Assembly: GCA_028716565.1 (NCBI GenBank)
Contig: JAQUPL010000001.1
Location: forward strand, 19,545-83,544
Direction of reading: 5' to 3'
Source of the DNA: Candidatus Omnitrophota bacterium
Lineage (GTDB): Bacteria; Omnitrophota; Gorgyraeia; Pluralincolimonadales; Pluralincolimonadaceae
DNA length: 64,000 nt
A program made the translations under genes and the position numbers. Shown here one piece after another: positions 7,542-26,627 of this stretch (the first letter of the stretch is position 1; each line of letters starts with the position of its first letter). The notes under the pieces are model-generated. The model was not told where the DNA came from, ran no database searches, and saw only the letters and a program-made list of their open reading frames with translations.

Positions 7542-7542
7542 A

Positions 7543-9279: not shown

Positions 9280-9334
9280 CTTTCGGTAACTTATAGGGTA
9301 TATTTATATTATAGACGAGAGAGGAACTACAACT

Positions 9335-11072: not shown

Positions 11073-11084
11073 CTCCTTAACATC

Positions 11085-11438
11085 ATGAGAAAAGGTTTTA
11101 CGTTAATCGAGATAGTCATATCGCTCGCGATACTCGCTGTAGGGTTGGTGGGCATATTGTCGCTTTTTCCGATAGGTTTTGACTCGGCTAGGCGCTCGAT
11201 GAATTCCACGCAGGTCGCGATCTTTGCCAATGAGAAGCTCGAAGAACTGAGGAACACCGGATTTCCCTCTTTAGGCGTCACGAGCGGGGCCTTCTCCGAC
11301 GCGTCTTATGCGTGGTCGCAGAGCGTTTCAACCGTAGACGCGATCGACGCATTAAGGAAGGTGGATCTGACGGTAACCTGGGAATACAGGAGCCGCCCTT
11401 ACCAGCAGGTATTCACGACCTATGTGGCGACCAGATAG
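11085..11438 (+). CDS. minor pseudopilin, GspI-like (prepilin-type N-terminal methylation motif)
   Basis: MRKGFTLIEIVISLAILAVGLVGILSLFP. Length is 117 aa, typical of GspI. Confidence 0.65.
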   Translation: MRKGFTLIEIVISLAILAVGLVGILSLFPIGFDSARRSMNSTQVAIFANEKLEELRNTGFPSLGVTSGAFSDASYAWSQSVSTVDAIDALRKVDLTVTWEYRSRPYQQVFTTYVATR

Positions 11439-12198
11439 ATATATAAGAAGGAATAGCTCCGGCCTGACCTTGGTCGAGATCCTCGTCGTGGCCGTCATCT
11501 TCTCCATACTAGTTACCTCCCTGTTTACGGTCTTCAGGGGCGGGCTCGATTCCTGGCACAAGGCCGAGACGATCCTAGATATGTACCAGAACGCTAGGTT
11601 CGCGCTCGACATAATGGAGAGGGAGATAGCCTCCGCCTGCCTCTACCAGGAAAGCTCCAACACCGCATACTGGACTAAATTCGAGGGTTATCGTTATCCC
11701 TCCGTGTCCGGCCTAAAGACCGGCTCCGCAGGCGACGAGATCTTTTTCGTCGCGCCGATAGCGAATAATTCGGCCAAGCAGGACCTATGCGAAGCCGGAT
11801 ATTGGCTCAGGAACGATAACCGCCTCATGCACCATTTCGAGTATTTCGACGGAAGCGTAGTGCCGGTTGCCTATGATTTTTCAAAGAAGGCCGACGGTTC
11901 CGCGGATACCGGGGCATCCGATACCACAGTCGCCCGCAATGTCACGGCTTTGCAGTTTACTTATTATTACAGGCATGCGGCCGCCGCCGCGCCGGATTTC
12001 GATACTCCGGCATTGCATACATGGAATTCCGGATCGGATAATCCGGGAGGAAGGGCCGAGAACTACGATTCGGACGGAAACGCTAAGAATCCCGACGGCT
12101 TGCCTGACGCGGTGGAAATATCCATAACGCTGCAGAGCAAGGACGGCAGCCAGACAAAGACCTTTACGGATTTCATAAGGATCGTAGGTGCGAGATGA
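11422..12198 (+). CDS. minor pseudopilin, GspJ-like (prepilin-type N-terminal methylation motif)
   Basis: SGLTLVEILVVAVIFSILVTSLFTVF prepilin motif with a larger globular domain. The start overlaps the previous gene. Confidence 0.6.
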   Translation: MWRPDRYIRRNSSGLTLVEILVVAVIFSILVTSLFTVFRGGLDSWHKAETILDMYQNARFALDIMEREIASACLYQESSNTAYWTKFEGYRYPSVSGLKTGSAGDEIFFVAPIANNSAKQDLCEAGYWLRNDNRLMHHFEYFDGSVVPVAYDFSKKADGSADTGASDTTVARNVTALQFTYYYRHAAAAAPDFDTPALHTWNSGSDNPGGRAENYDSDGNAKNPDGLPDAVEISITLQSKDGSQTKTFTDFIRIVGAR

Positions 12199-15173
12199 AA
12201 GAGACTAGCCCCAAATACAAAAAGAAGAGAGGCGTAGCCCTCATAATCTCGGTGGGCATCCTGGCGCTCATCGCGATGATAGCCACGAGTTTCGCTATAA
12301 ACATGCAGATCGAGTATAGGGCCGCGGCGAATTTTATGTATTATACCGTAGCTAAAGAGCTATCCGGCGCGGGCCTTGATAAGACGATTGCCGATATCCG
12401 GGCTTTGGCGGCAAACAACAGTTACGACGACGTCATGACTACCATAAATGCATCTCCTTACGCCGACCCGGGGACCGAGGTGAATTTAGCGGAGGGAAGC
12501 TATCAGGTCTATGTGGAGCGGGAGGACCAGAAGATAAACATAAACGCCCTTGATGAGACCGATTATCCGTGGATAGATGAGTTGAAAAGCAAGGGCCTTT
12601 CATACGATGACATCGCGAAGATAATCAATTATCGCGTTCCGGAGACGGAGTATAGCAGTATCACCTCTGTATTGACCGCCACCGGCCCTCAGTCCTGTAA
12701 CAGCGGCACCATCCAGAAGCACGGGCCTTACGCAACAGTCGAAGAATTGCGGCTTGTCCTTAACGACGACGTCAAATATAATGCCATAAAAGACTTCGTT
12801 ACCGTCTATGCCCCGGTGATACCGGGAGGGCTTACCGGTAAGTATTACTCCCAACCCGATAATACGGTGTGGGATAAAAACTCGATCCTGGGCCTTGGTA
12901 ATTTTTGCGGCAAAGTCGTGGAATTTCGCGCCCTTAAAGAGGCGAAGGACTCCGGTTCAGACCCCTGGCCTCCTTCCGGGACGTTCCCGGGCGCCGACGG
13001 GGATTGGAACGGATGGAGCGAGGCGCACGACGCGGAATTTGCGGGGGGTTATATAGCCGCTGACTGGACGTGGCGGTCGGGATTGGATTATTTCGGCGCG
13101 GTATTCACCGGCTATATATACATACCTCAGGATAAGGTAAATCAGGATATAACCTTCAAGATGCGCAGCGAGAACGGCTGCAGGCTTTTTATAGACGGGA
13201 CAAAATTGATCGAAGATTGGACCGACAGGAACATGGGCGGCTGGCCGTCAGATAATGTCCTTGTCGCTCCGGTTGTTGTCTTCAGCCGCGCCGGCTGGCA
13301 CTCGATAAGGGTCGAATACTACAACAAAGAGAACCAAAATACGGTCCAGCTTAAATGGGACGCCTACGGTTCTGATGATTACGTTCCGGCCGAATACTTC
13401 GGATATAATCCCTCTTCTTTTTACGGGGATATCGCGGTCGACTCGAACCCGGTGACGACGCCTAAGACATACAGGGCTGCCTCCAGGCTCGGGACGGATT
13501 ATAACTCGGCCGGTATCCTGAAGATAGTCTCTACAGGGAAGACGAAAAAGAACGGAGTCGTCGTAGCCGAAAAGAAGACGGCCTCGGTCATCCAGGTCTT
13601 TAATACCCTTACGCAATCGACGCGGGCGGAATTTTGGGCGCCGTGGTTCTCGCTCTACAACAATTTCAGCGATGGGGAGGTAAGGAACGTGACCTGGCTC
13701 GATTCGTGTCCGACCAGCCAGGATGGTTTCGACGGCAGCAAGATGAATTGGGAGGGGAATTACACGACCACCCCCGATTCCGTCAAGCTCGGATACTGGG
13801 ATAACTTCAACGACGATATTGCCTACACCGCGATAATATTGAAGGGGGGATATGTAACGAAGTTATTCGGTATAGCGTGGTGGGATTGGGATGTTCACAC
13901 ATTTCCCAGCACCCATGAACACTGGCTTCCTAGGGGAAGAATAGACGGTGAAGATGCAACTGCTATAAATTGGGACGGCGATTATGTGTGGCCCTGCACT
14001 TTCGGCGATTTTTCCGTCCCGGAAGGGTTCAAGGAAGATGGCATTAATGGCACGTATTGCCTCAGAATGGATGTACCGGGATATTATTACGATGGATGCA
14101 GGGCTGAGGAAAGGCAAGCTGAATTAAACAGTTATTACTACAAAGCAGACTCGCCGTTGGGCTACGATATCTTCGCCAGGTCTTATGTCTATGACAACGG
14201 ACAGAAGCAGACATGGGACAGCAACTGGCAACGGCCTCCAAGCCAGCGCTTGGCTAATCCGGGATATGCCTCCCATATTCCGTCATTTTTGACGGGGTAT
14301 CTCATCCTCAAGACCGATCCGCCGTATACAACTGACCATCAGACAAAACCCGGAGACGTTTATTATACTTTTGTCCAAAACGGGACCGACTGGTTCGGTT
14401 CCTCCGACTCGGATGCGAGCGTAATATATTGTCCAGGCAAGACAGACTCGACAGTCGGCGCCTGTTATTCCTGGAATGAGGATACGCAACAGACGCAGTA
14501 CTACATATTAGCGGCGATAGGGGTGGGAACCACGTATAAGGCTTATTATTCCTATACTACTCAGGATGGTTCCGGTTGGGTCACCACGGGAGCATCCGGA
14601 ACAGGCAGCGCGTCTAAAGCAGGTGTCGTAGCATTCCGGGCAAACAATATATATTATGTCGATCTCGACTTATTCTGGCAGGGGGACCCTCCCTACACCA
14701 ATGAAGTATTCGTCGATATGGTATACGACAGGACTGACGGGATCACCGACAATAACCCCAGATATATTGGCAGCACCAGCGAATGCGTGACCGACTTCGA
14801 TAACGTCAGGGTCATATATCCAAAGGGTTATATAGTATCCGCGCCGCTTATAGCTAAGCCTCCTTCGGATAACGCCAATATAATATGGGATACGATAACG
14901 TGGAATGATGCGAACCCGAATCCTGCCAATACCTCAATAACGATGTATGCCAGGGCGGCCGACACCCCTTCCGCAAGCGATGATTTCTCGACTGAATACT
15001 CCAAAGGGGACTCATTGTCATCCCTTTCAGGCGGTAAGTTCCAGTATAAGGCTTTATTGGGCACGACAGCGTTGAACCCTAATGACTATTCGGCCAGCAG
15101 CTCCACGCCTGTCCTGAAGGGCGTCACCGTGATGTACCACCGGCCGAAAGCCCGGGTATTTTACCAGCAGTAG
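12195..15173 (+). CDS. giant GspK-like pseudopilin (992 aa) with internal PA14 domain and long C-terminal extension
   Basis: GspK-type N-terminus (KKKRGVALIISVGILALIAMIATSFAINMQ) and a GspK-like helical region (QKININALDE...TVEELRLVLNDD). A PA14-like segment lies at about nt 12825-13370 (TGKYYSQP...FTGYIYIPQD...FKMRSENGCRLFIDG...HSIRVEYYNKEN...LKWDAYG), followed by about 600 aa of W/Y-rich sequence. Confidence 0.65.
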   Translation: MKETSPKYKKKRGVALIISVGILALIAMIATSFAINMQIEYRAAANFMYYTVAKELSGAGLDKTIADIRALAANNSYDDVMTTINASPYADPGTEVNLAEGSYQVYVEREDQKININALDETDYPWIDELKSKGLSYDDIAKIINYRVPETEYSSITSVLTATGPQSCNSGTIQKHGPYATVEELRLVLNDDVKYNAIKDFVTVYAPVIPGGLTGKYYSQPDNTVWDKNSILGLGNFCGKVVEFRALKEAKDSGSDPWPPSGTFPGADGDWNGWSEAHDAEFAGGYIAADWTWRSGLDYFGAVFTGYIYIPQDKVNQDITFKMRSENGCRLFIDGTKLIEDWTDRNMGGWPSDNVLVAPVVVFSRAGWHSIRVEYYNKENQNTVQLKWDAYGSDDYVPAEYFGYNPSSFYGDIAVDSNPVTTPKTYRAASRLGTDYNSAGILKIVSTGKTKKNGVVVAEKKTASVIQVFNTLTQSTRAEFWAPWFSLYNNFSDGEVRNVTWLDSCPTSQDGFDGSKMNWEGNYTTTPDSVKLGYWDNFNDDIAYTAIILKGGYVTKLFGIAWWDWDVHTFPSTHEHWLPRGRIDGEDATAINWDGDYVWPCTFGDFSVPEGFKEDGINGTYCLRMDVPGYYYDGCRAEERQAELNSYYYKADSPLGYDIFARSYVYDNGQKQTWDSNWQRPPSQRLANPGYASHIPSFLTGYLILKTDPPYTTDHQTKPGDVYYTFVQNGTDWFGSSDSDASVIYCPGKTDSTVGACYSWNEDTQQTQYYILAAIGVGTTYKAYYSYTTQDGSGWVTTGASGTGSASKAGVVAFRANNIYYVDLDLFWQGDPPYTNEVFVDMVYDRTDGITDNNPRYIGSTSECVTDFDNVRVIYPKGYIVSAPLIAKPPSDNANIIWDTITWNDANPNPANTSITMYARAADTPSASDDFSTEYSKGDSLSSLSGGKFQYKALLGTTALNPNDYSASSSTPVLKGVTVMYHRPKARVFYQQ

Positions 15174-15183
15174 GGATAACAAT

Positions 15184-16053
15184 ATGAAAAAAATAATCGC
15201 GTTCTCCGTCATCCTGTTTTTAAGCTTATGCCTGCGGGCCTCTGCCGCTCCCGGGGATAAATACGCGATAAGGGTGCCGGGGGACTGTAAGACCATCAGG
15301 GAAGCGTGCGAGAAGTCCTTTCCGGGCGATACCATATACATAGGCGCAGGCGAATACACGGAGAAAGAGGGATTTACCGTTAAGAGTAATATCAAGCTTG
15401 TCGGGCAGGGCGCCGACAAGACCCTTATCAAACTTGGAAAGAGCGGATTATCCATAATCTCATCGCGCGGGAGCGTGAATAACGTTGCCATAAAAGACCT
15501 CTCCATAGAGGTCAACGGGCAGCCCTTAAGGGTTAGTGGCGTCGACAGTTTTCTTTTAAAGGACTGTGTCTTAATAAGCAGGAACCTGTCTACCTGCATA
15601 GAGGTCAGCGGCGTAAAGAACGCGCAGATATTGAACTGCGATATAGTGAACGCAAGTTACGGCCTGATGCTTTGGGGCGGGCCGATCGAGCTTGTCGTAA
15701 GGAATTCGGTCTTTTACAACAATAAGGTCGGTATCTGCTCCGCCAAACTTCCGCCGCCGGGGAATCCCCGGGACCTGCCTAAAGGATATCTGGAAGAATA
15801 TTATAATAAGCCGCGCGAGGACATCAGCCTTACGCTTAGCTACAACCTTTTTTATAACCTGAAGGATTTTTTGGATTGCCGGAAAGGGGAGAAGGACATA
15901 TTGCTGGATCCCAGGTTCGCGAATGCCGCGAAAGACGATTTTCACCTTAGGGGAGATTCCCCCTGTGTTGATGGCGGCGACCCGGACGCCAAGTATAACG
16001 ACCCAGACGGCTCAAGGAACGACATCGGGGCTCTCCCATTTGCCGGAAAATAA
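15184..16053 (+). CDS. secreted right-handed parallel beta-helix (pectin-lyase-fold) repeat protein
   Basis: Signal peptide (MKKIIAFSVILFLSLCLRASAAP) and PbH1-like repeats (NVAIKDLSIEVNG, LKDCVLISRN, NCDIVNASYGLMLWGG, VRNSVFYNNKVGI). Confidence 0.55.
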   Translation: MKKIIAFSVILFLSLCLRASAAPGDKYAIRVPGDCKTIREACEKSFPGDTIYIGAGEYTEKEGFTVKSNIKLVGQGADKTLIKLGKSGLSIISSRGSVNNVAIKDLSIEVNGQPLRVSGVDSFLLKDCVLISRNLSTCIEVSGVKNAQILNCDIVNASYGLMLWGGPIELVVRNSVFYNNKVGICSAKLPPPGNPRDLPKGYLEEYYNKPREDISLTLSYNLFYNLKDFLDCRKGEKDILLDPRFANAAKDDFHLRGDSPCVDGGDPDAKYNDPDGSRNDIGALPFAGK

Positions 16054-16113
16054 TAAAATTACCAGGAAGCGGAGTTGTTTTTATGTCAGCTACCCTCGCG
16101 GGCATACGAGAAA

Positions 16114-18681
16114 ATGAAAATAAGAATAAGAAAAAATAACAAGGGTATCGCCCTCATAGTGACGGTCGGCGTCCTCGCGATGATGCTGATAATCGGGACA
16201 TCTTTCACCATCAATATGATGGCCGATCACAGGTCGTCGGTGAATATGGCGATGGCGGCGCAGGCCAGGGCCGCGGCAGAGGCGGGATTGAATATCGCTA
16301 TCGTATCGGCGAGGAACCTGGCCGTCAGCGATTTCAACGGCGTGCCTGCCGCTACCATGAGCGGCTCTCTCGGGAACGTGGGGAGGGGGAATACCGCCGC
16401 CTATTCCGTCAATATAACCGATACCGCGAGCCAGCTCAACGTAAACGACACAAATCCCGGGTTGGAAGATATGCTCGAAAGCCTTGTTGCCATACTGGGA
16501 AGCCCTCTTCAGGCCGGCGACGGGACCGCGATTATTTCATACCGCTCGACCCTCACGGGCGGAGTTTATATCACAAAGGAACAGGTTACCGACGCGTTTT
16601 CCGGCACAACCTCCGTAAAACAGGCCAAGTTCAACAAGATAGCGGAATATGTGACGGTAAATGGTTATATAGACGAGAACAGCGAGGATTCTACGGCCTC
16701 GTCTTTTACAGGCCTGGATAATCCTAACTCGACTTACCAGCGCAAGGCGCCGGTAAATATAAATAAAGCGGACGCTAAAGTGCTTAGGGCTGTTTTAGCG
16801 CCTGTCATTACGCCGACAGATCCTGCCACGTTAGCCGGTGATATTATTACAAGAAGAAACACGAATTTCTTTACCAGTTGGAATGATTTTGACGGTTTTA
16901 TAGACGGCCTTGGTTACCTGACCGCCGCTGAAAAAATAAAAATAAAAAATAACGCGAATCCGAATAAAGTAAAAGTTGATAGCGTGGGAGTCCCCCTCTC
17001 TTATACAACTGATTTTTGCTTCCATCCCGGCGGCGTTTACGAGATAACATCTACCGGGACGGCCGGACCGGCCCAGAAACGGATAACCGCTCTCGTGCGG
17101 ATATATGATGTCATAAATTACACGACGAAAGAGCAGTTCAGGGGAGATACTTACACGGTCATCCCTGCCGTATATGATGGCACATTGCCGATTTTTAAGA
17201 ACGTAAATTGGCTTAACAGCTGTCCGGTTACCTCCGATTACGACAATGGATTGGAGGTCGACCCGCCAAACTACAGCACTAACGCCATCGCTAATTCCCT
17301 TAAACTGGGTTTCTGGGATAACTTTGATGAAGATAATGATAATGTCAGTAAAACAGGATGGAGCTGGCGGAATTGGCAAGATTCCAGTCCCGATGGTCAT
17401 GATATAGTAATAACTGATGTTAATCCCGTGTATCCTAACCCCCCCGGTGCCCATGGTCCTCAACCTAATTTAACGGATGGCGATAACGAATTGAGCGATG
17501 ACGCATCTTATGGACCGACGGCGTTGGCTTATCTAGATTTACGGGGCACTCAAAGCGGACAGTGGAATTGCAATCAGGAATTCTCCCTGAGAGTCTATTG
17601 TAATGTTCTTAAAAATCCTCCGCCTCAGGCTGGCTATCCTCTTGCTAATAATTATTATGACAGCAATGACCGCTGGGAGGGTTATGAGGATACTGAGCAG
17701 ATAGACTTCGTTCCTGCGGGCCAGACGGGCCAGATATATATCAGTAACTTTCGTTGTGTGTACTTTGGGGACTACGGGTCCAGGGCAATCATCGATGGAA
17801 TAGGGTACGACGTACCCGGCGATTTTATAGATTCCATGTTAAGATTGAATTTCTACGGCGGCGGTGGTGACCATTATATGTACTTAAACAAGGACATGGA
17901 CGGCAACTACATGTATTCTTCGATAGGCGACGTGTCTCCTTTACATACACTGGTTCCGGCGGATGCGAACAGGATAGTTCCTATTAATGCTACTTTCAGG
18001 TTGATTGTACATGGGGCAGCAGACAACAATTATCAGATTTATCTGGCAGTTTCCCCCACCGGGATCGCTTATCATGAATGGCCGGACTCAACGAACGCTC
18101 AGGCTGGGATATGTGAGGCTGACGGAGGGGCATGGATTCCCTGGCTTTGGCAGATTCATTATCTTATCTACAATGCCGTTGACAAAAACTATCATCAATT
18201 TGTCGATACGGGAGCGGATGACAGATATGGCTATATGGAGTCGCAGTTTTGGCATGACCAAACAGCAAACAGATTTATATATACTGATTGGTATTTGAGA
18301 TTAATTAACCATCCGTCCACGATTTACGGACGTTACGCTTTATTCGATGAAGTCCGCTTGATCCCTGACCAGGGCTATTACATTTCTCCCGCGTCCACCA
18401 CGGCAAGTAACGGGCGCTTTGGCACCGCGTCGTGGACTTTGGCTATCCCGCCGGGCGCAGTTACTAATGAAAGGGCTGCGGTGGAAATTTCCAGAGACGG
18501 GGGGGCTAGCTTTAGTCCGGTAAATATCAACGGTGGCGCGAATATCGATCCTTCGACGACCATGTGTTTCAAAGTCACTTTATTATCGGACGACCCGCAG
18601 CATTTACAGACGCCTGTCCTTGAGGACATTACTCTTACCCGTTTGCCAAAGGTAGCGGTCTTATATTGCAAATATGAGTAA
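16114..18681 (+). CDS. second giant GspK-like pseudopilin (about 855 aa)
   Basis: N-terminus MKIRIRKNNKGIALIVTVGVLAMMLIIGTSFTINM and GspK-like motifs (SQLNVNDTNPG, PVNINKADAKVLRAVLAPV). The C-terminal about 600 aa are W/Y/N/D-rich. The ORF is open from 16075; the ATG at 16114 is preferred by analogy with the first GspK-like gene. Confidence 0.6.
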   Translation: MKIRIRKNNKGIALIVTVGVLAMMLIIGTSFTINMMADHRSSVNMAMAAQARAAAEAGLNIAIVSARNLAVSDFNGVPAATMSGSLGNVGRGNTAAYSVNITDTASQLNVNDTNPGLEDMLESLVAILGSPLQAGDGTAIISYRSTLTGGVYITKEQVTDAFSGTTSVKQAKFNKIAEYVTVNGYIDENSEDSTASSFTGLDNPNSTYQRKAPVNINKADAKVLRAVLAPVITPTDPATLAGDIITRRNTNFFTSWNDFDGFIDGLGYLTAAEKIKIKNNANPNKVKVDSVGVPLSYTTDFCFHPGGVYEITSTGTAGPAQKRITALVRIYDVINYTTKEQFRGDTYTVIPAVYDGTLPIFKNVNWLNSCPVTSDYDNGLEVDPPNYSTNAIANSLKLGFWDNFDEDNDNVSKTGWSWRNWQDSSPDGHDIVITDVNPVYPNPPGAHGPQPNLTDGDNELSDDASYGPTALAYLDLRGTQSGQWNCNQEFSLRVYCNVLKNPPPQAGYPLANNYYDSNDRWEGYEDTEQIDFVPAGQTGQIYISNFRCVYFGDYGSRAIIDGIGYDVPGDFIDSMLRLNFYGGGGDHYMYLNKDMDGNYMYSSIGDVSPLHTLVPADANRIVPINATFRLIVHGAADNNYQIYLAVSPTGIAYHEWPDSTNAQAGICEADGGAWIPWLWQIHYLIYNAVDKNYHQFVDTGADDRYGYMESQFWHDQTANRFIYTDWYLRLINHPSTIYGRYALFDEVRLIPDQGYYISPASTTASNGRFGTASWTLAIPPGAVTNERAAVEISRDGGASFSPVNINGGANIDPSTTMCFKVTLLSDDPQHLQTPVLEDITLTRLPKVAVLYCKYE

Positions 18682-18700
18682 AAGGAGAAAAAAGAATAAA

Positions 18701-19780
18701 ATGAGACAGGTGTTTCCCGTATTTTTTTTGATGTTCTTTTTGGCCGCGGCTTTTCCGGCCACGGCAGCCGATGTTAGCCAGCCGGAAGCACTTGATGAAT
18801 CCGTAGGCCATCCGGATGCCCTTGGCGAATTCAACAAAAGATTTTCGGAGATAAAGGCAGGTGATGCCGCGGCTTATTATAATTTGGCGGTGTACTGTCT
18901 AGATAACGATCTCCCGGAACAAGCGGAATACCTGCTCGGTGAAGCAGCTAAAGATCCATCTTTTGAAAAAAGGGCGAAAAGACTTCTCGAAGTGCTTACA
19001 GGTGAACCGGACAAGTCTTATTATGAATCCGCGTTTAAGCACTATGAATCGGGGTATCTTGCGGAGGCTAAAGCAGAGATCGAAATGCTAAAAGCCTCTT
19101 ATCCCAAAAGCCATTATATTCGTAAAGCGAGGTCTCTTCTGAAAAAGATTGACAAGGAAGCGCTTGATAAACCTTATCTTTTGACGAATTCCGCCGATCC
19201 CGGTAAAATTATTGCTTCTTTGAATCAGAGCGCGGAAAAAGAGGAAGGCAATGCGGAGGAATTGAAAAAGGAATATCTTACGGATATCCTCAAGAAGGCT
19301 GAGTATTTCGCGGATGTTATGGCAGCCAAAGCTCCTTCCAAGGGAAAAAAGGAAGAATATTTATTCTATGCGATAAAATGCGCGGAAAAAGTATCCGGAT
19401 TGTCGGATGACGCTGAATTAAAAAATAAAGCCGGGGATCTGAGAGGCAAGATCACCAAGCAATTATTTGTTGAACACCCGGTATCCGAAGATTTGAAAAA
19501 TATAGACAGCTATTATGAGAAGTTATACTTGGTCAAAGATAGTGGTTTTGTCGAGGATGTATGCGGCAAATATACCAAGACGGGAGAGGAATATTTAAAG
19601 AAAGCCCGGAAGGCCTCGGGCGCTGAAAAAATAAGTAATCTTGTTAGCGCCTATAGATGTTTCTCGTTTGCCAATGCCTATACGAAGTCCGAGAAGATGA
19701 AACAGGAGACTTTTCAAAAGATGGAGCTTATTAATGCCGAAAAAAGGAAGGAGATAAGCAAGAAGAAAACGTCAAATTAG
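18701..19780 (+). CDS. secreted lysine-rich helical/TPR-like protein of unknown function within the secretion locus
   Basis: Signal peptide MRQVFPVFFLMFFLAAAFPATAA. The mature part is K/E/A/Y-rich with TPR-like pairs. An AAGGAG RBS lies upstream of the ATG at 18701; the ORF is open from 18674. Confidence 0.45.
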   Translation: MRQVFPVFFLMFFLAAAFPATAADVSQPEALDESVGHPDALGEFNKRFSEIKAGDAAAYYNLAVYCLDNDLPEQAEYLLGEAAKDPSFEKRAKRLLEVLTGEPDKSYYESAFKHYESGYLAEAKAEIEMLKASYPKSHYIRKARSLLKKIDKEALDKPYLLTNSADPGKIIASLNQSAEKEEGNAEELKKEYLTDILKKAEYFADVMAAKAPSKGKKEEYLFYAIKCAEKVSGLSDDAELKNKAGDLRGKITKQLFVEHPVSEDLKNIDSYYEKLYLVKDSGFVEDVCGKYTKTGEEYLKKARKASGAEKISNLVSAYRCFSFANAYTKSEKMKQETFQKMELINAEKRKEISKKKTSN

Positions 19781-19858: not shown

Positions 19859-21508
19859 ATGGGAAAACGTGCTCTAGGGATCGATATAGGCGCGGGCTCG
19901 GTAAAACTCGTAGAGCTGGAAAAGACGGTTGAGGGCATTCAGCTCATCCGGGCGAAATTTTTTGATTTGACCCAATATGCCGACCAGGAAAAAAGGGACA
20001 CCCTGATCAGGGAAGGCATAGAGGGGTTGTTGAGAACAGAAAAGATAAAGAGCGGCAGGCTCGCGCTCTCCCTCTCGGGCCAGTCGGTATTCATCCGCTT
20101 CCTCAAGCTCCCCAAGATCCAGCAAGGCAAGATAGACAAGATAATAAAATACGAAGCACAGCAGCAGATCCCTTTTCCCCTCGATAAGATAAGCTGGGAC
20201 CACCAGATCTTCCGCTCCGGCGCGGGCCCGGAAGAGGACGTCCTTTTCGTCGCCGCGAAAAAAGAGATCGTCGAAACTACGCTTTCGCACGTAGCGAGGA
20301 CCAACCTGGACATAGAGTTCGTCGATGTCAGCCCGCTGGCCCTCCTTAACGCCATAACTTACAATGAGCCCCTCGGCAAGGGACTGATCCTTGATATCGG
20401 CGCCAAGGCGACCAATCTTATCGTCATCTCGGACAAGGGGTTCTGGGTCCGTTCGATACTTATCGCCGGCGACGAGATGACCCATGCTATCGCCTCAAAG
20501 TTAAATATACCTTTCGACAAGGCGGAAGAGCTTAAGCGCAAAGAGGGGATGGTGGTCGCATCAGACAGCCTTGTTCCCTCGAACATCACCCCGGCCGGCA
20601 AAGACCTCGTTAATGCCCTGAACCCGGTCGTCTCCGACCTGATATCTTCGATAGTCCAGTCGATGGAATTTTACAGGACCAAACATGCCCGCGATACCGC
20701 CTTCAACGAGATCATATTATCGGGCGGCGGCTCAAAGCTCAAGGGCATAGAGGATTTCCTGGCGAAGGGGCTCGGCATGCAGATAAGGCGCGCCAACCTG
20801 GGCCAGAAGATAAAATGCCCGTCCAACCTCAGGGTCGATATAGATTTCCAGACACGCTTCGGCTCTTCGATCGGCCTGGCCCTGCGCCTGCTCCAGAGAT
20901 GCCCGACCAATATAGACCTGTTGCCGGTCGAGAGGAAAGAGGAAAGAGATTTCAAGAAAGAAAAATTCTGGATCATCTCTGCGGGCCTCCTTATCGCCGT
21001 GATACCGCTCACGATAGGGTATAATATCTGGTTCCAGACGTCGACCCTAAGGAAGGAAGTGGCCTTCCTGGATTCGCTTTTGTCGGATTACGAGAACATC
21101 AACAAGGAAATAGCCAAGCTTAAGGAAGATATAAAGAACAGCGAGGCAAGGCTGGAACCTTTTGAAAATCTGGCCATAAAGAAAAGCCTCTCGCTTGAGG
21201 CCATATTGGGGATAAGGAAGCTCCTACCCGAAGAGACCTGGTTGACGTCGGTCTCCAAGGAGAAGGACTTCTTCTCGCTGGAAGGCAGGACGGCCTCGAG
21301 CCTCCTGACCATAAACGATTTCAAGAACAGGCTCGCATCCTCGCCGTTATTCGATTCGGTAGAGATAATATACGCGAGCCTGCCCCGCCAGACCGAAGAG
21401 GGCGCGGGACAATTCAGGGATTTTTCCATAAAGTTCAGGTTCAAGGGGACCGGCGCGGCTGCGGCGGCCCCGAAGGGCGAGAAGGACGAAACGAAAGGCA
21501 ATAAATAG
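19859..21508 (+). CDS. PilM-PilN fusion (GspL-like): actin-like ATPase-fold cytoplasmic domain + TM + periplasmic coiled-coil domain
   Basis: PilM N-terminus (LGIDIGAGSVKLVELEK) and actin-like fold, then a TM segment (FWIISAGLLIAVIPLTIGYNIWF), then a PilN/GspL-like coiled coil. Length is 549 aa. Confidence 0.75.
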   Translation: MGKRALGIDIGAGSVKLVELEKTVEGIQLIRAKFFDLTQYADQEKRDTLIREGIEGLLRTEKIKSGRLALSLSGQSVFIRFLKLPKIQQGKIDKIIKYEAQQQIPFPLDKISWDHQIFRSGAGPEEDVLFVAAKKEIVETTLSHVARTNLDIEFVDVSPLALLNAITYNEPLGKGLILDIGAKATNLIVISDKGFWVRSILIAGDEMTHAIASKLNIPFDKAEELKRKEGMVVASDSLVPSNITPAGKDLVNALNPVVSDLISSIVQSMEFYRTKHARDTAFNEIILSGGGSKLKGIEDFLAKGLGMQIRRANLGQKIKCPSNLRVDIDFQTRFGSSIGLALRLLQRCPTNIDLLPVERKEERDFKKEKFWIISAGLLIAVIPLTIGYNIWFQTSTLRKEVAFLDSLLSDYENINKEIAKLKEDIKNSEARLEPFENLAIKKSLSLEAILGIRKLLPEETWLTSVSKEKDFFSLEGRTASSLLTINDFKNRLASSPLFDSVEIIYASLPRQTEEGAGQFRDFSIKFRFKGTGAAAAAPKGEKDETKGNK

Positions 21509-21511
21509 AAG

Positions 21512-22273
21512 ATGCCAAAAGGCATGAACGAGTCGTTGACGACTAAGATCTCCTTGGGAGCGGTCATACTTGTCTCATTTCTTTTTTTAGGGATAACCGT
21601 GTATGACAGGTTGAGGATCGAAGGGGCTGTCGTGCAGAAGCAGGAGCAGCTCAAGGTCTACAAAAACCAGGGCCTCGGTTTCCTGAGCAGCGAAAAGAAC
21701 CGCCTTGAGAGGCAGCTCAAGGCCATGCGGGGAGCCGACAAGGAGATAAGCGGCATGCTCTTCTCTAAACCGTCCTCCCGGATGGTTAAGGAGGTCGGGG
21801 ATCCCCTTAAATTCAAGGAGGAGTTGTACAAGGTCCAGAATAAGATAAAAGAGGACGGCGCTTCCATAAATTTCCAATTCCCGTTCTGGCTGGGTTTCGA
21901 GAGGTACCAACACGATATACCGAATCCGGCGGACCTTCCGTTCAGGGTAAAGCAGCTCGACATAATAAACGAGATCGGCAGCCTTGCCCTGGCCTCGAAG
22001 GTGCCGGAGATCTCGACGATCGAATTCCTTGAGATCAGGAAAATAACGGCGGACAACAAGGAAATCCTTTTCATGGAATTTCCCGTCAGGGTGGTCATTA
22101 AGTGCGGTAACGAGAGCCTGACCAATTTTATGTATAAGCTGAGCGTCGCGGATATGCCTTTCAGGGTGGATTCGTTTAAAATAAAAGTTTCCGCAGACGA
22201 AAGCGCGGCCGAGGGTGACATGACCGGCGAGTTGGTCATAGTCGCTGCCGTATTGCCGGCGGAGAAGATATGA
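21512..22273 (+). CDS. GspM/PilO-like inner-membrane assembly protein
   Basis: N-terminal TM (ISLGAVILVSFLFLGITVY), a coiled-coil segment and a C-terminal alpha/beta domain. It sits between the GspL-like gene and the GspC/PilP-like gene. Confidence 0.5.
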   Translation: MPKGMNESLTTKISLGAVILVSFLFLGITVYDRLRIEGAVVQKQEQLKVYKNQGLGFLSSEKNRLERQLKAMRGADKEISGMLFSKPSSRMVKEVGDPLKFKEELYKVQNKIKEDGASINFQFPFWLGFERYQHDIPNPADLPFRVKQLDIINEIGSLALASKVPEISTIEFLEIRKITADNKEILFMEFPVRVVIKCGNESLTNFMYKLSVADMPFRVDSFKIKVSADESAAEGDMTGELVIVAAVLPAEKI

Positions 22274-22947
22274 AAGGCGCATCCCGGATAGTAGCCGCAG
22301 CAGCGTTCATTCTATGGATATTGGCGATGTGGAAATCGTCTTCGGTCTTTGAGTCAAAGCAAGTCCCATTCTATCCGGAAGAAGGCAAAGGGGAAGCTAT
22401 TCCCGCTAAGGAAGGCGCCGCCGCCCTGCCGAACTCTTTTTCGTACGTGGAAGAATTGCTCAAATCCCCCTATGCCGTCTCGAGATACAAGCCCCTCCTC
22501 GACAAGAACATGTTCATAAAGCCCGAACCCCCGGTCAAGGTCTTTTCGCCTGAAGACCTGACGTTAGTATCCGTCACGGCCGTACCCCTGCCTTTTATGT
22601 ATAAAGGTTTTATCGAGGTGTCGGACGGGACCATAATAGGCCAGATCAACTGGTCCGGTAAGACGTATTTCGTGAAGAAGGGGCAAAAGGTCAAAGACTA
22701 CAAAGTGACGGAGATCAACAGCAAGATTGTCAAGATGGAAAACAAGGATGGCCAGGTTACCCTCGAGTTAAAGAAACCCGCGAAGAGCAAGGAATTGGTC
22801 GCAAAACTGCACGATTCGATGAATAATAAGGATATCGAGGCAAAGAAGGGTGACCTGATCGGAGAGTATAAAGTTCTTGACATAAAAACCGATTCTGTGG
22901 TATTATACGGCCAAAATAAAGAGTGGGTTATAACAAAGGGGAGATGA
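22270..22947 (+). CDS. membrane-anchored periplasmic protein, possible GspC/PilP-like secretin-interacting component
   Basis: N-terminal TM (IVAAAAFILWILAMW) and a beta-rich C-terminal domain. Assignment rests on position only; there is no strong motif. Confidence 0.35.
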   Translation: MKGASRIVAAAAFILWILAMWKSSSVFESKQVPFYPEEGKGEAIPAKEGAAALPNSFSYVEELLKSPYAVSRYKPLLDKNMFIKPEPPVKVFSPEDLTLVSVTAVPLPFMYKGFIEVSDGTIIGQINWSGKTYFVKKGQKVKDYKVTEINSKIVKMENKDGQVTLELKKPAKSKELVAKLHDSMNNKDIEAKKGDLIGEYKVLDIKTDSVVLYGQNKEWVITKGR

Positions 22948-22952
22948 TATAA

Positions 22953-24080
22953 ATGAGTATGACCAATGAGGTTAAAAGAACAGCGGGTAGGTTCTTTGTT
23001 TGCATCTTTTTGGCTTTTGATTCGTTCTTTATTATCTCATTAGGTAATGCTTTTTGCGCCAGGGTTTACGCCGCTTCCGATGCTGATATAGCCGGGGACT
23101 CAGTCGAGGCGAGGATAATAGCACAGGACCTGGCCAAAGAGAAAAAAGTCGAACAAAAATCCCTCATTAAAGACCTCTTCGATCAAGCCAAGAGCGAATA
23201 CGACGCTAAAAATTACGAAACGGCGCAGCGGATTTTCGAGAGGATAGTCCAGCTGGACCCCAAGAATAAACAGGCCGTCCATTATGTCGAGATGTGCAAA
23301 GAGGGCATAGTAAAGACCGTCCCCGATACGATAACAGGCTCTATGATAAAGCGCGGCAAAGCGAATTACGCGAAAAAAGAATATTCCGCAGCGGTAGGTG
23401 ATTTTGAAAGCGCGCTCGCCGCGAACCCCAGTGACGCCGAAGCCCGGGATTGGTTGATCAAGGCGAGGCAGGCCGAGGGGTTAGTCGCGAGGGAAAAGGC
23501 TACCAAGGAAGAGCGCAAGTATGTCGTAAAGGACAGGCACGTAACGAACGAGGAGAAGGATACATCCGAGCAGAAGGCACTGCTCGACGTGGATAGAGGA
23601 TGGCTGCCTCCGGAGAAGACCGGCAGGGAAGAGTTGCAGGTTGAAGAGGTGATACCTGAGTCGGAAAAGGCCGACATGGAAGCGAGGAAGAAGCTCGAGG
23701 AAAAGATGGCGAGTGTTATCGTCCCGGCCATATCGGTTACCGACGCCGACGTCCAGGACCTTATCCGACAGTTGACTGAGATGACGGGAGTAACTATCGT
23801 CATCGACGAGAAGGAGCTGTCCGCCCTCACCAGAGAGCAGCCGCTGAAGATCACGATCAGCACGGCTGCGCCTATGCCGTTGCTCGATATACTGGGTATC
23901 GCGTTCAAGACTACGCAACTCGCTTATAAGGTCGAGCCGAATTACGTTTATGTATCGAGCAGAGAGAATATAATGAGAGAAGGCCTTGTCACGAGGACTT
24001 ACAAGCTCAAATACGGCGAACGCAAAACTCGCGCAGTCAAATTAACAGAGTTTGAAACCAAGTCGGCAGAGGCGAAATGA
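22953..24080 (+). CDS. TPR-repeat protein with C-terminal secretin N0-like (Secretin_N) domain; stand-alone secretin N-terminal module
   Basis: Signal/TM segment, TPR-like repeats (AKNYETAQRIFERIVQLDPKN; KKEYSAAVGDFESALAANPSD), then a segment (ISVTDADVQDLIRQLTEMTGVTIVIDEKELS...KITISTAAPMPLLDILGIAFKTTQLAYKVEPNYVYVSS) resembling PilQ/GspD N0 domains, at nt about 23709-23967. Confidence 0.55.
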   Translation: MSMTNEVKRTAGRFFVCIFLAFDSFFIISLGNAFCARVYAASDADIAGDSVEARIIAQDLAKEKKVEQKSLIKDLFDQAKSEYDAKNYETAQRIFERIVQLDPKNKQAVHYVEMCKEGIVKTVPDTITGSMIKRGKANYAKKEYSAAVGDFESALAANPSDAEARDWLIKARQAEGLVAREKATKEERKYVVKDRHVTNEEKDTSEQKALLDVDRGWLPPEKTGREELQVEEVIPESEKADMEARKKLEEKMASVIVPAISVTDADVQDLIRQLTEMTGVTIVIDEKELSALTREQPLKITISTAAPMPLLDILGIAFKTTQLAYKVEPNYVYVSSRENIMREGLVTRTYKLKYGERKTRAVKLTEFETKSAEAK

Positions 24081-25198
24081 AGAAAAAGTTTATCGCGGGA
24101 GCGGTAATAATTTGTTTGACGATCCCCCAGATCGCGCTCTTTGCGGCTGATGACGGCAGCCTCAATATCAAAGATTATCTCGAGCAAAGCCTGCCTGCCC
24201 AGGAGGGGAGAAAGATAACCTATAATAACGGCACGAGGCTCCTGACCGTTACCGATACGAAAGACAACCAGGAACTCATCAGGAGTTTAATAAAGGGGTT
24301 TGAGGTCGGTCCCAAACAGGTGATGATCGAGACCAGGTTCGTGGAAGTGTCCGTCACCGACCTGGACGAGTTGGGTATAGAATGGGATTTCTTCCATCCC
24401 GGCAACGCCAACGACAAAAACAGCGGATTTACCATAGGCGCTCCTGTGGGTACGCAGTATCAGGGCCTGCGCTGGAATAATGATATAGCCTCCACGTTCC
24501 CCGTAGTGGGAAATTTCGCCGGCCAGGTCATGATGTTCAAAGTTTTGGCCAACGGCGAGGCCTATATAGCGAATCTCAGATTTTTAGAGCAACAGGGTAA
24601 GGCCAATCTCCTTTCCGCTCCCAAGGTTACTGCGATCTCCGGCCAGATGGCGAACATCCAGGTGGTAAGGACATATCCTTACGTATCTGATTTTACGCTT
24701 GAGAACATAGGGACGGCTGAGTTCCCTATCTGGAGTTACAAATTGTCCCTTGCCGAAAAACCGGTAGGCATATTCCTTGAAGCGACCCCTTATGTCACCG
24801 AAGGGTCGAATACCATAACTTTAGACCTGCATCCGGAGGTGAGTGTCCTGCGGTCGCAAGTGGCCATCTCTAACCTAAGTACGAGCGGCGAGACGGGGCA
24901 GCTGGGTAATGTAACCTCCGCAACAAACGTAAAACTCATACCGACTGACCTGGGCTGGCCTGTTGTGGACGTAAGGACCACCCAGACGAGCGTTTCGGTA
25001 GACAGCGGTGCGACGATAGTGCTGGGCGGGCTTATTAAGGACAGTGAGACGATAACGAGGAGAAAGATCCCGGTCCTGGGGGATATACCTTTGTTAGGCC
25101 AGGCTTTCCGGTATGATTACAAAAACCAGACCAAGACGAACCTGCTTATATTTATTACCGCGAGCATTATCGACGCGAGAGGCGAGGTCATAAGATGA
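24077..25198 (+). CDS. short secretin (GspD/PilQ family C-terminal secretin domain), paralog 1
   Basis: Signal peptide and an N1/N3-like segment (LTVTDTKDNQELIRSLI...VMIETRFVEVSVTDLDELGIEW). The secretin domain carries the signature VLGDIPLLGQAFRYDYKNQTKTNLLIFITASII. Length is 373 aa. Confidence 0.85.
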   Translation: MKKKFIAGAVIICLTIPQIALFAADDGSLNIKDYLEQSLPAQEGRKITYNNGTRLLTVTDTKDNQELIRSLIKGFEVGPKQVMIETRFVEVSVTDLDELGIEWDFFHPGNANDKNSGFTIGAPVGTQYQGLRWNNDIASTFPVVGNFAGQVMMFKVLANGEAYIANLRFLEQQGKANLLSAPKVTAISGQMANIQVVRTYPYVSDFTLENIGTAEFPIWSYKLSLAEKPVGIFLEATPYVTEGSNTITLDLHPEVSVLRSQVAISNLSTSGETGQLGNVTSATNVKLIPTDLGWPVVDVRTTQTSVSVDSGATIVLGGLIKDSETITRRKIPVLGDIPLLGQAFRYDYKNQTKTNLLIFITASIIDARGEVIR

Positions 25199-26298
25199 AG
25201 AATAAATACGGCGTTTCTTTGCCGCAGGTGATATTGTGTTCGGCGGTGATCCTCCTTTCGTTCGCGTCCGGGCAGGTCTTTGCGGCGGATGAGCCTGCCG
25301 CGGGAGAGGCGGCAGGCATCGAGCAATATCTGCAGGACGCCCTGCCTGAGAACCCGGAAAGGAAGGTTGTTTATGACTCATTGACCGGTGTGCTTACCGT
25401 TACCGATACCCCGACTAACCAGGCGATGGCCAAGGACCTGATAAGTCTATGGGATACCGGGTCCACGCAGGTAAGGATACAGGCGAGATTTGTGGAGATC
25501 CAGGTCACTGATATAGAGGAGTTAGGGATCGAATGGCAGATCTTTAAGGCGCAAAGATATCCCATGGATAAGAACGGCCACTGGAGCAACTTTGGGACCA
25601 GTGTTTCTAGCGGGACATTAAGCGAGGATCAGGCTAACGCCGCTTTCTTCGGAACGGCAAACGAGACTTCGGGTCTGGGTTTGACTATCGGAAAGTTCAC
25701 GAACGCGGGGGATATGTATAGGGCATATATAAAGGCGCTTATCGAGCAGGGGAAAGCCAGTCTCTTGTCTTCTCCTTCGGTGACCACTATCTCCGGCCAG
25801 ATGGCGAACATCCAGGTAGCTAACATAGTCCCTTACGCCTCGGATTTCACGAGGACTAACATCGGCACCGCCGATTTCCCGGTCATGGTCGAGATATACA
25901 AAGTGGCGGAAAAGGTGACCGGCATATCGCTTGAGGTGACGCCTTCGGTGGGAGGCGACAGTAAGGTGGTCACGATGGATATACATCCCGAGGTCAGCAT
26001 CCTGGTCGACCAGATCCCGATCTCTTCTTCGGACGATTTCCCCGCAAACTTAGGATACCCGGTCATCGACACGAGGACAACGCAGACGTCGGTAGTCGTC
26101 AAGAGCGGAGAGACGGTCGTACTGGGCGGATTAATAAGGGAAGATGAAAGAACTACGAAAAGGAAGATCCCGGTCCTGGGCGACATACCACTCCTGGGCA
26201 GACTATTTACTACCGACCACACCGACAAGTCAAAGAAGAACCTGTTGATCTTCCTGACAGCCACGATATTGGACTCAAGAGGAGAGCCGGTGCTATGA
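25195..26298 (+). CDS. short secretin (GspD/PilQ family), paralog 2
   Basis: Same architecture as paralog 1 (LTVTDTPTNQAMAKDLI...VRIQARFVEIQVTDIEELGIEW...VLGDIPLLGRLFTTDHTDKSKKNLLIFLTATIL). It overlaps paralog 1 by 4 nt. Confidence 0.85.
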   Translation: MKNKYGVSLPQVILCSAVILLSFASGQVFAADEPAAGEAAGIEQYLQDALPENPERKVVYDSLTGVLTVTDTPTNQAMAKDLISLWDTGSTQVRIQARFVEIQVTDIEELGIEWQIFKAQRYPMDKNGHWSNFGTSVSSGTLSEDQANAAFFGTANETSGLGLTIGKFTNAGDMYRAYIKALIEQGKASLLSSPSVTTISGQMANIQVANIVPYASDFTRTNIGTADFPVMVEIYKVAEKVTGISLEVTPSVGGDSKVVTMDIHPEVSILVDQIPISSSDDFPANLGYPVIDTRTTQTSVVVKSGETVVLGGLIREDERTTKRKIPVLGDIPLLGRLFTTDHTDKSKKNLLIFLTATILDSRGEPVL

Positions 26299-26627
26299 AA
26301 CGCGCAATATTGTTGATATCCGTTCTTTTATGCGCTATTATCTTATCGTCAGCCGTGATGGCCCAGTACCTTCCCACTGCCTCTTCTACGACTGCAAAGA
26401 GCACTAAACCGAAGGACGTTGTCCTCACTACCTCGGACATAAAAGATTCCTATAAGGTCATAGGGATCGTTTCGGTCCGTGGCGGCGAAGTGAACCTCGA
26501 CGCCTTAAACAGCAAACTTAAGGACGCGGGAAAGGAATTAGGGGCCGATTACATCATAGGCATACAGTATTTTACCTACAGCGGCTACGTGTATGGCTAT
26601 GGGACGGCTGTAAAGATCAAGGAATAG
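26295..26627 (+). CDS. small secreted YbjQ/UPF0145 (DUF74)-like protein
   Basis: Signal peptide (MKRAILLISVLLCAIILSSAVMA) and a C-terminal segment (LGADYIIGIQYFTYSGYVYGYGTAVKIK) resembling the YbjQ family. Translationally coupled to secretin 2. Confidence 0.45.
   Translation: MKRAILLISVLLCAIILSSAVMAQYLPTASSTTAKSTKPKDVVLTTSDIKDSYKVIGIVSVRGGEVNLDALNSKLKDAGKELGADYIIGIQYFTYSGYVYGYGTAVKIKE

Follow-up and report, generated by a model that had tools for sequence, protein, structure and literature searches.

A secretin divided between an N0-bearing TPR protein and two tandem pore cores in Omnitrophota

Secretins assemble into outer-membrane rings of 12–15 subunits. In every solved secretin ring found in PDB searches, the N0 domain and the pore reside in one chain of a single secretin protein. 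A different layout was noted in a preliminary description of a 64,000-nucleotide stretch of Omnitrophota DNA (hereafter the window), according to which an N0 module and two paralogous short cores are encoded by three overlapping genes. This raises the questions of whether the genes are real, where the chain was broken and how the separate parts might form a channel. Full-text literature searches on Omnitrophota secretins returned no publication, and those for hetero-oligomeric or tandem secretins returned nothing relevant; the only published split-secretin precedent found was RhcC1/RhcC2 of the Rhc type III secretion system (T3SS). In this study, the three genes are interpreted, with good though not full confidence, as a genuine secretin split that was fixed anciently in a type IV pilus/type II secretion-like machine of the Amuc_1098–1102 type (PVC-style) in Omnitrophota.

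Reality and conservation of the genes

Inspection of the sequence and its ORFs confirmed three consecutive ORFs, followed by a small fourth gene:

22953–24080, + strand: ORF1, 375 aa, the N-terminal half of the split secretin
24077–25198, + strand: ORF2, secretin core A, 373 aa
25195–26298, + strand: ORF3, secretin core B, 367 aa
26295–26627, + strand: O4, 110 aa, a small exported YbjQ/UPF0145-like protein

The 4-nt overlaps previously described are ATGA junctions at 24077–24080 (ORF1/ORF2) and 25195–25198 (ORF2/ORF3). The start of O4 overlaps the end of ORF3 by 4 nt in the same manner, and a GAGG-like Shine–Dalgarno motif precedes the start of each ORF. O4, with weak YbjQ/UPF0145-like profile matches only, is present at most split loci and at none of the fused ones; it is considered a candidate accessory factor. 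Rfam and tRNA scans of the window gave no match relevant to the secretin locus. Further genes of the same machine lie upstream:

5832–18681, + strand: upstream part of the machine
19859–21508, + strand: PilM–PilN fusion (Amuc_1101 family), inner-membrane platform, same operon
21512–22273, + strand: PilO/GspM-like protein (weak Amuc_1100 family match)
22270–22947, + strand: PilP/GspC-like protein (weak match: GspC_delta, E 1.4e-4; pilP_fam, E 4e-4)

The first of these regions encodes two tandem PilB/GspE-type ATPases, a GspF platform protein, a GspG-like pseudopilin, an N_methyl minor pseudopilin and two giant GspK-like proteins; a beta-helix protein is also located within it (15184–16053). GspF, PilMN, the PilO-like and PilP-like proteins and ORF1 are each present as a single copy. 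The PilP/GspC-like gene is conserved in position immediately 5' of ORF1 in all loci, and its product is the expected partner of N0.

An indel could in principle hide in the 4-nt overlaps, in which case the locus would represent a canonical secretin gene broken by a sequencing or assembly frameshift or by pseudogenization. However, the identical arrangement was found in three independent assemblies of this organism (two NCBI MAGs and a Logan assembly). Furthermore, every one of the 25 species-level Omnitrophota loci (GTDB) with enough downstream DNA has the order PilMN, PilO-like, PilP-like, ORF1, secretin A and secretin B (ORF1 identity 34–86%; L004–L006 agree in gene order), and three more distant loci (L040–L042) likewise carry the split arrangement, giving a total of at least 28. 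The junctions differ among these loci, some being 4-nt overlaps and others gaps of up to about 30 nt. Occurrence of the layout in at least 28 related genomes rules out a sequencing error; the differing junctions, a separate signal peptide and Shine–Dalgarno motif for each ORF and purifying selection on all four genes (dN/dS 0.09–0.24) likewise exclude an artefact, and the probability left to a frameshift is negligible. Among the at least 28 split loci, none had only one core, and since every lineage retains both, A and B are considered to be non-redundant.

Domain content of the three proteins and position of the break

In ORF1, a signal peptide or signal-anchor precedes a region of TPR and long helices, which is followed by an N0/STN domain and, C-terminally, by a conserved strand motif:

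23160–23462, + strand: TPR region of ORF1 (aa about 70–170)
23715–23960, + strand: N0/STN-fold domain of ORF1 (aa 255–336)
23985–24020, + strand: tail motif LVTRTYKLKYGE of ORF1 (aa 345–356), proposed to act in trans as strand 1 of the cores' last N-domain

The TPR region is matched by Pfam TPR_2 (E 1e-7), whereas sequence-only searches for N0 were marginal: STN scored 18.0 bits against a cutoff of 28.4, GspD_N0 (type_II_gspD_N0) scored 15.1 bits against 27 and the top PDB sequence match in phmmer, the N0 domain of XcpQ, reached E 0.035. For this reason, the assignment relies on a comparison of folds and on the colinear alignment with fused relatives. The C-terminal domain has the STN fold and is positionally homologous to N0 of bona fide secretins, so that the earlier reading of an N0-like domain at the end of ORF1 holds despite the sub-threshold profile scores. 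The NCBIfam profile of the Amuc_1098 family (805 positions) also matches ORF1 through its profile positions 210–370 (E 2.8e-11). The 76 homologues of ORF1 are nearly all stand-alone proteins of 365–378 aa that are at present annotated as 'hypothetical' or 'TPR repeat protein', owing to which automated surveys would score such machines as having an N0-less secretin. One distant relative carries the source annotation 'TadD'.

ORF2 and ORF3 share 44% identity and have their own signal peptides (aa 1–24 and 1–30, respectively), which can be aligned from residue 1. Both belong to the secretin superfamily (Pfam Secretin PF00263: E 3e-39 and 134.8 bits for ORF2, E 4e-43 and 147.4 bits for ORF3, cutoff 27.5) and contain the VLGDIPLLG...LLIF(I/L)TA motifs, as had been described. 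The top PDB sequence matches of ORF2 are XcpQ, GspD and PilQ (E 1e-23 to 1e-17), and InvG, RcpA and pIV are further matches of the cores. The solved RcpA (426 residues) and phage pIV (414 residues) also show that the earlier statement that secretins normally exceed 600 aa was too strong. In ORF2 a partial N3-like domain without strand 1 (aa about 29–81) is followed by the secretin domain to aa 366, and in ORF3 the corresponding segments are aa about 40–92 and up to aa 359. An insertion at aa about 267–284 of ORF2 is conserved in A and absent from B and the fused forms. Neither core has an N0, AMIN or S-domain, and Pfam gave no STN/N0 match in either, in agreement with the first reading. The N1/N3-like segment that it had placed in the cores is indeed present, but is incomplete: Secretin_N (PF03958) aligns only over profile positions 14–69 of 69 and, at 25.3 (ORF2) and 24.9 bits (ORF3) for the whole proteins, stays below its cutoff of 28.2.

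The cores also fall below the cutoffs of the established families, with 164.8 (ORF2) and 177.7 bits (ORF3) against 351 for GspD (TIGR02517), 137 and 160.9 bits against 284 for PilQ (TIGR02515), and 142.6 and 160.4 bits against 250 for MshL (TIGR02519). With the Amuc_1098 family equivalog NF042912 (cutoff 750), ORF1, ORF2 and ORF3 score 42.2, 157.5 and 132.6 bits; none qualifies alone, and the profile is covered jointly by the three proteins.

A comparative search yielded the fused versions that had been anticipated, in the form of single-chain relatives of 700–924 aa from the syntenic slot, with TPR, STN/N0, Secretin_N and Secretin in one polypeptide. ORF1 together with mature ORF2 or ORF3 aligns colinearly with these chains, which bears out the view that the N0 module has been placed on a separate gene. 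The Omnitrophota MAG GCA_043800345.1 encodes one fused secretin of 707 aa between PilMN/Amuc_1100-like genes and polA–GT5–coaE–rho–L31–RF1, and the fused secretin of locus L039 adjoins polA–coaE–rho as in the syntenic slot. In structure comparisons, the model of a fused relative matches PilQ (6w6m), InvG, BfpB, GspD and XcpQ N0–N1.

This colinearity also bears on the nature of ORF1. The pilotins PilF/PilW/Tgl and TadD are TPR lipoproteins that, like ORF1, are encoded with a secretin and likely act on it, and ORF1 might be regarded as an independent accessory protein with an STN-fold domain, either such a pilotin (PilF/PilW/Tgl-like) or a FecR/TsaP-like adaptor, with the short secretins being complete on their own. 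However, the TPR, N0 and tail of ORF1 are colinear with the N-terminal half of the syntenic single-chain secretins, the Amuc_1098 match lies in a secretin family, and the first 13 positions of Secretin_N are missing in both cores. A pilotin would have a lipobox signal peptide and a TPR-only body, whereas ORF1 lacks the canonical L-(A/S)-(G/A)-C lipobox and carries N0 and a secretin-derived strand. The pilotin assignment was rejected, and the accessory-protein reading as a whole is considered improbable.

The break lies in a disordered, variable linker between the conserved strand motif LVTRTYKLKYG and the remainder of the last N-domain; that is, the split falls inside this domain, after its first strand, and not at a domain boundary. 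Strand 1 is missing from both cores, and in 20 of the 20 loci inspected the mature N-terminus of A and B starts at helix 1 of the N-domain, straight after the signal peptide. In the ORF1 tail, residues T349, Y350, L352 and R357 are invariant among 44 homologues, and the tail motif has low confidence in a structure model of ORF1 alone. The homologous MVTRTYS of the fused relative P0244 is modelled by AF2 as a strand (332–338, pLDDT about 84) that comes after a full N0 of five strands and before a linker with pLDDT below 50, with helix–strand–strand–helix beyond it; in this model, the strand could instead extend the N0 sheet. Grafting the ORF1 tail onto the N-domains raised the Secretin_N score from 29.2 to 39.5 bits for ORF2 and from 28.4 to 41.1 bits for ORF3, each with coverage 1–69, while eight shuffled tails gave 28.6–30.8 bits (a gain of 1.6 bits or less) for the window sequences. 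At L004, L024 and L031 and in three fused relatives, the gain was just +0.6 to +5.7 bits; the alignments mostly reached profile positions 1–3 and those with shuffled tails sometimes reached 4–8. The graft result, clear for the window's own sequences and weak elsewhere, is thus supportive of the view that ORF1 probably provides the missing strand to the cores in trans.

Assembly of the split secretin

The ancestral protein would have been a single chain with, in this order, TPR, N0, strand 1, a disordered linker, the remaining part of the last N-domain and the secretin domain. A cut inside the linker would have left TPR, N0 and strand 1 with ORF1, and the pore half would have gained its own Sec signal peptide and been duplicated a single time to give cores A and B. 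In the secretin tree, fused proteins are separated from A + B with 100/100 bootstrap and the A and B clades are recovered with moderate bootstrap (47 and 64 of 100). Both this tree and the alignable signal peptides of A and B show a single duplication of the core after the split. In the PilMN neighbour-joining tree the split loci do not come out as a single group (4/100 bootstrap); this tree speaks neither for nor against a single origin of the split, which is therefore read from the secretin tree only.

After separate export of all three proteins, A and B would form secretin multimers inserted in the outer membrane and ORF1 would dock beneath them, its C-terminal strand LVTRTYKLKYG entering the incomplete N-domain (β-strand complementation). 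We infer that the N0 domain of ORF1 would then face the PilP/GspC-like protein of the PilMN–PilO platform and couple the pore to the inner-membrane motor. Translational coupling of ORF1, A and B suggests roughly 1:1:1 expression, in which case, should A and B both require an ORF1 tail, half of the core N-domains would lack it.

As to ring composition, the preliminary description had suggested a hetero-oligomeric channel. A and B might alternate obligately in one ring, for example 7 + 7, with the ORF1 tail bound to one or both and an N0 ring that may hold fewer subunits than the pore. This arrangement, which remains tentative, agrees with the retention of both paralogues in all of the split loci, the similar constraint on A and B (dN/dS), the translational coupling of the genes and the insertion conserved in A; furthermore, 69 common positions are conserved at ≥90% and only two fixed positions are paralogue-specific, and L036 retains a tandem pair of full-length secretins that arose by a separate duplication. 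However, the literature searches returned no hetero-oligomeric secretin, and two specialized homo-oligomers predict the same pattern of retention. Two separate homo-oligomeric pores would use a common platform and N0 adaptor, for example with one pore for a pilus or pseudopilus and one for other cargo, or one pore per ATPase, and are held to be possible to the same degree. The two tandem ATPases of the operon, the A-specific insertion in the secretin domain, which could alter pore properties, and the one secretin protein listed for every solved ring are in favour of two pores, whereas the single copies of GspF, PilMN, PilO-like, PilP-like and ORF1 are not. The N-domains of A and B are, moreover, equally truncated with a common I(K/E)(D/E)YL..LP...GR motif, and this likeness points to the same partner. 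Retention and single duplication fit both arrangements equally, and a mixed ring and two specialized rings are regarded as about equally likely. The fuller proposal, an obligate alternating A/B ring in which the C-terminal strand of the TPR–N0 subunit completes the truncated N-domains in trans, is more speculative and is considered rather unlikely.

If this fuller proposal is correct, the copy number of the N0 ring could differ from that of the pore (for example 7 to 14), so that the outer-membrane channel and the inner-membrane platform would no longer be coupled in symmetry, and the complex would be, as far as the searches show, the first heteromeric secretin and the first with inter-subunit strand complementation. 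More generally, the N0 docking module and the pore have come apart across a whole Omnitrophota clade, in which two pore paralogues are retained. Such a system makes it possible to ask which role N0 plays without a covalent link to the pore and whether a strand of another protein can complete a ring-building N-domain, and makes heteromeric rings of mixed subunits testable.

Comparison with known secretins

Canonical PilQ/GspD are homologous to the present cores in the secretin domain and the last N-domain. However, N0 is covalently attached in PilQ/GspD, where it contacts PilP or GspC (HR); in the window, the PilP/GspC-like gene lies directly 5' of the separate N0 gene.

Natural N-/C-terminal split genes are conserved by lineage in the rhizobial Rhc-family T3SS secretin, RhcC1 (NolW) and RhcC2, for which the functional meaning of the split was described as not known (PMC3574062, PMC3973906). 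Neither a duplicated pore half nor a TPR module of RhcC1 is mentioned in these papers; the genes are dispersed in their cluster, are not translationally coupled and belong to type III secretion in an unrelated lineage. The operon in the window encodes T2SSE, T2SSF, T2SSG, PilM/N and GspK-like proteins and no T3SS component, and the likeness to the Rhc split secretin is an analogy only.

A close correspondence is seen with the PVC-type single-chain TPR–N0–secretins of the Amuc_1098 family (NF042912; P0224, P0236, P0244 and P0254), which have the same domain order as the split set and likewise occupy the operon slot 3' of PilM–PilN and Amuc_1100-like genes; in the fused Omnitrophota secretins polA–coaE–rho follows downstream, as at the split loci. 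The single-chain form is one polypeptide of 700–924 aa with one signal peptide, usually in one copy, whereas in the split Omnitrophota form the linker is cut, the core is duplicated and the small exported O4 is added.

Operon setting of the secretin genes

The secretin genes lie in a long + strand operon of a Candidatus Omnitrophota MAG, and identical DNA is also found in GCA_028714115.1, GCA_028711645.1 and an independent Logan assembly. Genes in its upstream part code for a pair of PilB/GspE-type ATPases, a GspF platform protein, a pseudopilin of GspG type and an N_methyl minor pseudopilin. Next come a pair of giant GspK-like proteins, which flank a beta-helix protein, and then an unknown exported protein. 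These are followed by a PilM–PilN fusion (Amuc_1101 family), a PilO/Amuc_1100-like protein, a PilP/GspC-like protein, ORF1, ORF2, ORF3, O4 and finally polA. No retraction ATPase of the PilT type was seen among the operon's genes.

Features of the operon in window coordinates
5832-7541 and 7543-9279: tandem pair of PilB/GspE-type ATPases (569 and 578 aa), both with an MshEN domain at the N-terminus
12195-15173 and 16075-18681: giant GspK-like minor pseudopilins; the first has 992 aa and a PA14 domain, the second 868 aa
15184-16053: beta-helix protein between the GspK-like genes
18674-19780: exported lysine-/glutamate-rich protein of 368 aa, between the GspK-like genes and PilMN
22953-24080, + strand: ORF1
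24077-25198, + strand: ORF2 (secretin core A)
24875-24928: insertion specific to core A in the ORF2 secretin domain (aa ~267-284)
25195-26298, + strand: ORF3 (secretin core B)
26295-26627: O4, exported protein of 110 aa, overlapping ORF3 by 4 nt

The 368-aa exported protein matched no Pfam or NCBIfam family and is likewise encoded in L001 and L002, the two further assemblies of this organism. The ATPase pair parallels the pair of secretin cores. A bactofilin domain fused to an HTH_17/MerR-type DNA-binding domain is encoded at 3006-3539, overlapped by a second small HTH_17/MerR ORF immediately downstream (3508-3903). In two homologous loci the PilM–PilN fusion is present as two ORFs, L006:4736-6366 (identical to L025; 119 + 424 aa) and L029:3901-5512 (454 + 88 aa), which may represent a frameshift or another real split. 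The GC skew is positive in all 2-kb bins of 1-64000, with the cumulative skew climbing monotonically, and from 101 to 36524 every long ORF taken as a gene is on the + strand; a single leading-strand replichore appears to contain the entire window.

Conservation of the split and its fused relatives

The preliminary description proposed a split and duplicated secretin, in which an N0 module is supplied in trans to two short cores. The cores themselves were borne out by matches to Pfam Secretin (E values of 3e-39 for ORF2 and 4e-43 for ORF3) and to secretins in the PDB, XcpQ, GspD, PilQ, InvG, RcpA and pIV among them. ORF2 and ORF3 are 44% identical, and each carries an N-terminal Sec-type signal peptide and stops directly after the LLIF(I/L)TA motif, so that there is no S-domain. 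Their sole N-domain is a partial Secretin_N match (profile positions 14-69) from which the first strand is absent.

A frameshift or assembly artefact was ruled out by conserved gene order, varied junctions, selection and separate signal peptides, and the split and duplication are real. With each GTDB species represented by one genome, scanning yielded 27 loci. Of these, 25 had sufficient downstream DNA, and all 25 show the order PilMN, PilO-like, PilP-like, ORF1-like, two secretins and O4, the first secretin always best matching ORF2 and the second ORF3. The junctions differ among loci, the extremes being 4-nt overlaps and gaps of tens of bases. In the window, both ATGA overlaps (24077 and 25195) are genuine, with a GAGG-type ribosome-binding motif 5' of each start. 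Values of dN/dS were 0.12-0.24 for all four genes against three relatives; with a fourth, for which the other genes were saturated, ORF2 gave 0.09. In 20 loci, the signal peptide of both secretins is followed within a few residues by a conserved helix, I(K/E)(D/E)YL..LP...GR; in a fused gene, a signal peptide at an internal position would be senseless. The JGI and NCBI loci L004-L006 share the gene order, and two short secretins also lie 3' of ORF1-like proteins that are more distant and 403-487 aa long (L040-L042; in L042 the second gene is cut by the contig end and lacks family annotation). No single-core split locus was found among the loci examined.

O4 bears a weak signature of the pentamer-forming YbjQ/UPF0145 family. 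Beyond the 25 split loci of the scan it is present in L041, and it is missing from L040 and from all five loci with a fused secretin. It may assist the secretin as an accessory or in assembly.

Fused counterparts were found by searching 1.84 billion cluster representatives with the C-terminal 129 residues of ORF1. This module lies at the C-terminus of stand-alone proteins and mid-chain in proteins of 700-924 aa, most of which carry TPR, STN/N0, Secretin_N and Secretin on one chain and align colinearly with ORF1 plus mature ORF2 or ORF3. One occupies the syntenic slot in the Omnitrophota MAG GCA_043800345.1, where PilMN, a 410-aa Amuc_1100-like protein and one 707-aa secretin precede polA, GT5, coaE, rho, L31 and RF1, the window's own downstream neighbours. 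L039 has a fused secretin in the same slot, adjoining polA-coaE-rho, and L037 and L038 have one each.

ORF1 is the N-terminal half of the ancestral secretin. Nearly all of its homologues, down to 30% identity, are stand-alone proteins of 365-378 aa. It contains TPR repeats and only sub-threshold Pfam matches to STN and N0. An AF2 model built with 44 homologues folds aa 255-336 (pLDDT ~80) into a compact beta-alpha-beta-beta-alpha-beta-beta domain, so the N0-like assignment holds at the fold level, and the supply of N0 in trans is supported by this fold together with the colinearity.

The cut site and the first strand of the core N-domain

The break between ORF1 and core corresponds to a variable, low-complexity linker of the fused proteins, 3' of the motif (L/M)(V/E)T(R/K)xYxL..G...(F)TEFET and ahead of I.d.L...vP.p.gsk...d.rtgtL.V.NT. 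In the AF2 model of P0244, a fused relative (overall pLDDT 77), a complete five-strand N0 (aa 243-324) is followed by a sixth strand, MVTRTYS (aa 332-338, pLDDT ~84), a linker (aa 344-369, pLDDT < 50), a helix (372-379), two strands (387-391 and 396-402), a helix (403-417) and the secretin domain. The solved structures of PilQ, InvG, BfpB and GspD, and also XcpQ N0-N1, match this model. The homologous ORF1 segment, LVTRTYKLKYG, has four invariant residues and is of low confidence in the model of ORF1 alone.

Secretin_N scores rose when the ORF1 tail was grafted in silico, from 29.2 to 39.5 bits for the ORF2 N-domain and from 28.4 to 41.1 bits for that of ORF3, and the match then extended over profile positions 1-69. 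With eight shuffled tails the scores were 28.6-30.8 bits. The gain was only +0.6 to +5.7 bits for other loci and for fused proteins with the linker deleted, although most of these alignments reached profile positions 1-3. That the ORF1 tail supplies strand 1 of the cores' N-domain in trans is therefore kept only as the best-supported inference.

Duplication of the core and comparison with known secretins

An NJ tree built from the pore halves separates fused forms from A plus B in 100/100 bootstraps; the A and B clades are each recovered with support (47 and 64) lowered by two deep lineages. Identity falls to 41% among A copies and 34% among B copies, and is 39-48% between A and B of the same genome. 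The A and B signal peptides align from residue 1, which fits a gene split followed by duplication of the core; the PilMN tree neither backed nor contradicted one clade of split loci. There are 69 shared positions with >= 90% conservation in A and B, and only two paralogue-specific fixed differences. Every A copy has a 12-20-aa insertion, absent from B and the fused forms, which, judging from solved secretins, is probably at the extracellular lip. The non-split relative L036 (6902-11166) encodes full-length TPR-N0-secretins in tandem, one of 689 aa and one of 721 aa, with 39% identity. They are sister sequences in 97/100 bootstraps and hence duplicated independently of A/B; retention of two secretin paralogues therefore evolved at least twice in this machine type.

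ORF1, ORF2 and ORF3 are all exported. A and B would make one or more outer-membrane channels, and the ORF1 tail would dock on their truncated N-domains. N0 contacts PilP in PilQ-PilP and GspC in GspD-GspC, and by this precedent ORF1 would present its N0 to the PilP/GspC-like protein. A mixed A/B ring, the hetero-oligomer of the preliminary description, is given about one third of the probability, and two specialised rings, one of A and one of B, are likewise put at roughly one in three. Coupled translation suggests that the three proteins are expressed at ~1:1:1. In a mixed ring at this ratio, N0 subunits would, speculatively, number half the pore subunits, a proportion resembling the 7-on-14 arrangement of TsaP on PilQ (PDB 6ve2).

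Full-text searches of open-access literature returned no papers on secretins of Omnitrophota, on hetero-oligomeric secretins or on secretin cores in tandem. Among published split secretins, only one was found, RhcC1/RhcC2 of the rhizobial T3SS, the significance of which is likewise not known (PMC3574062, PMC3973906). The scores of ORF2 and ORF3 lie below the GspD, PilQ and MshL cutoffs, and none of ORF1-ORF3 reaches that of the closest family, the single-chain Amuc_1098-type secretin, the profile of which the three cover jointly.
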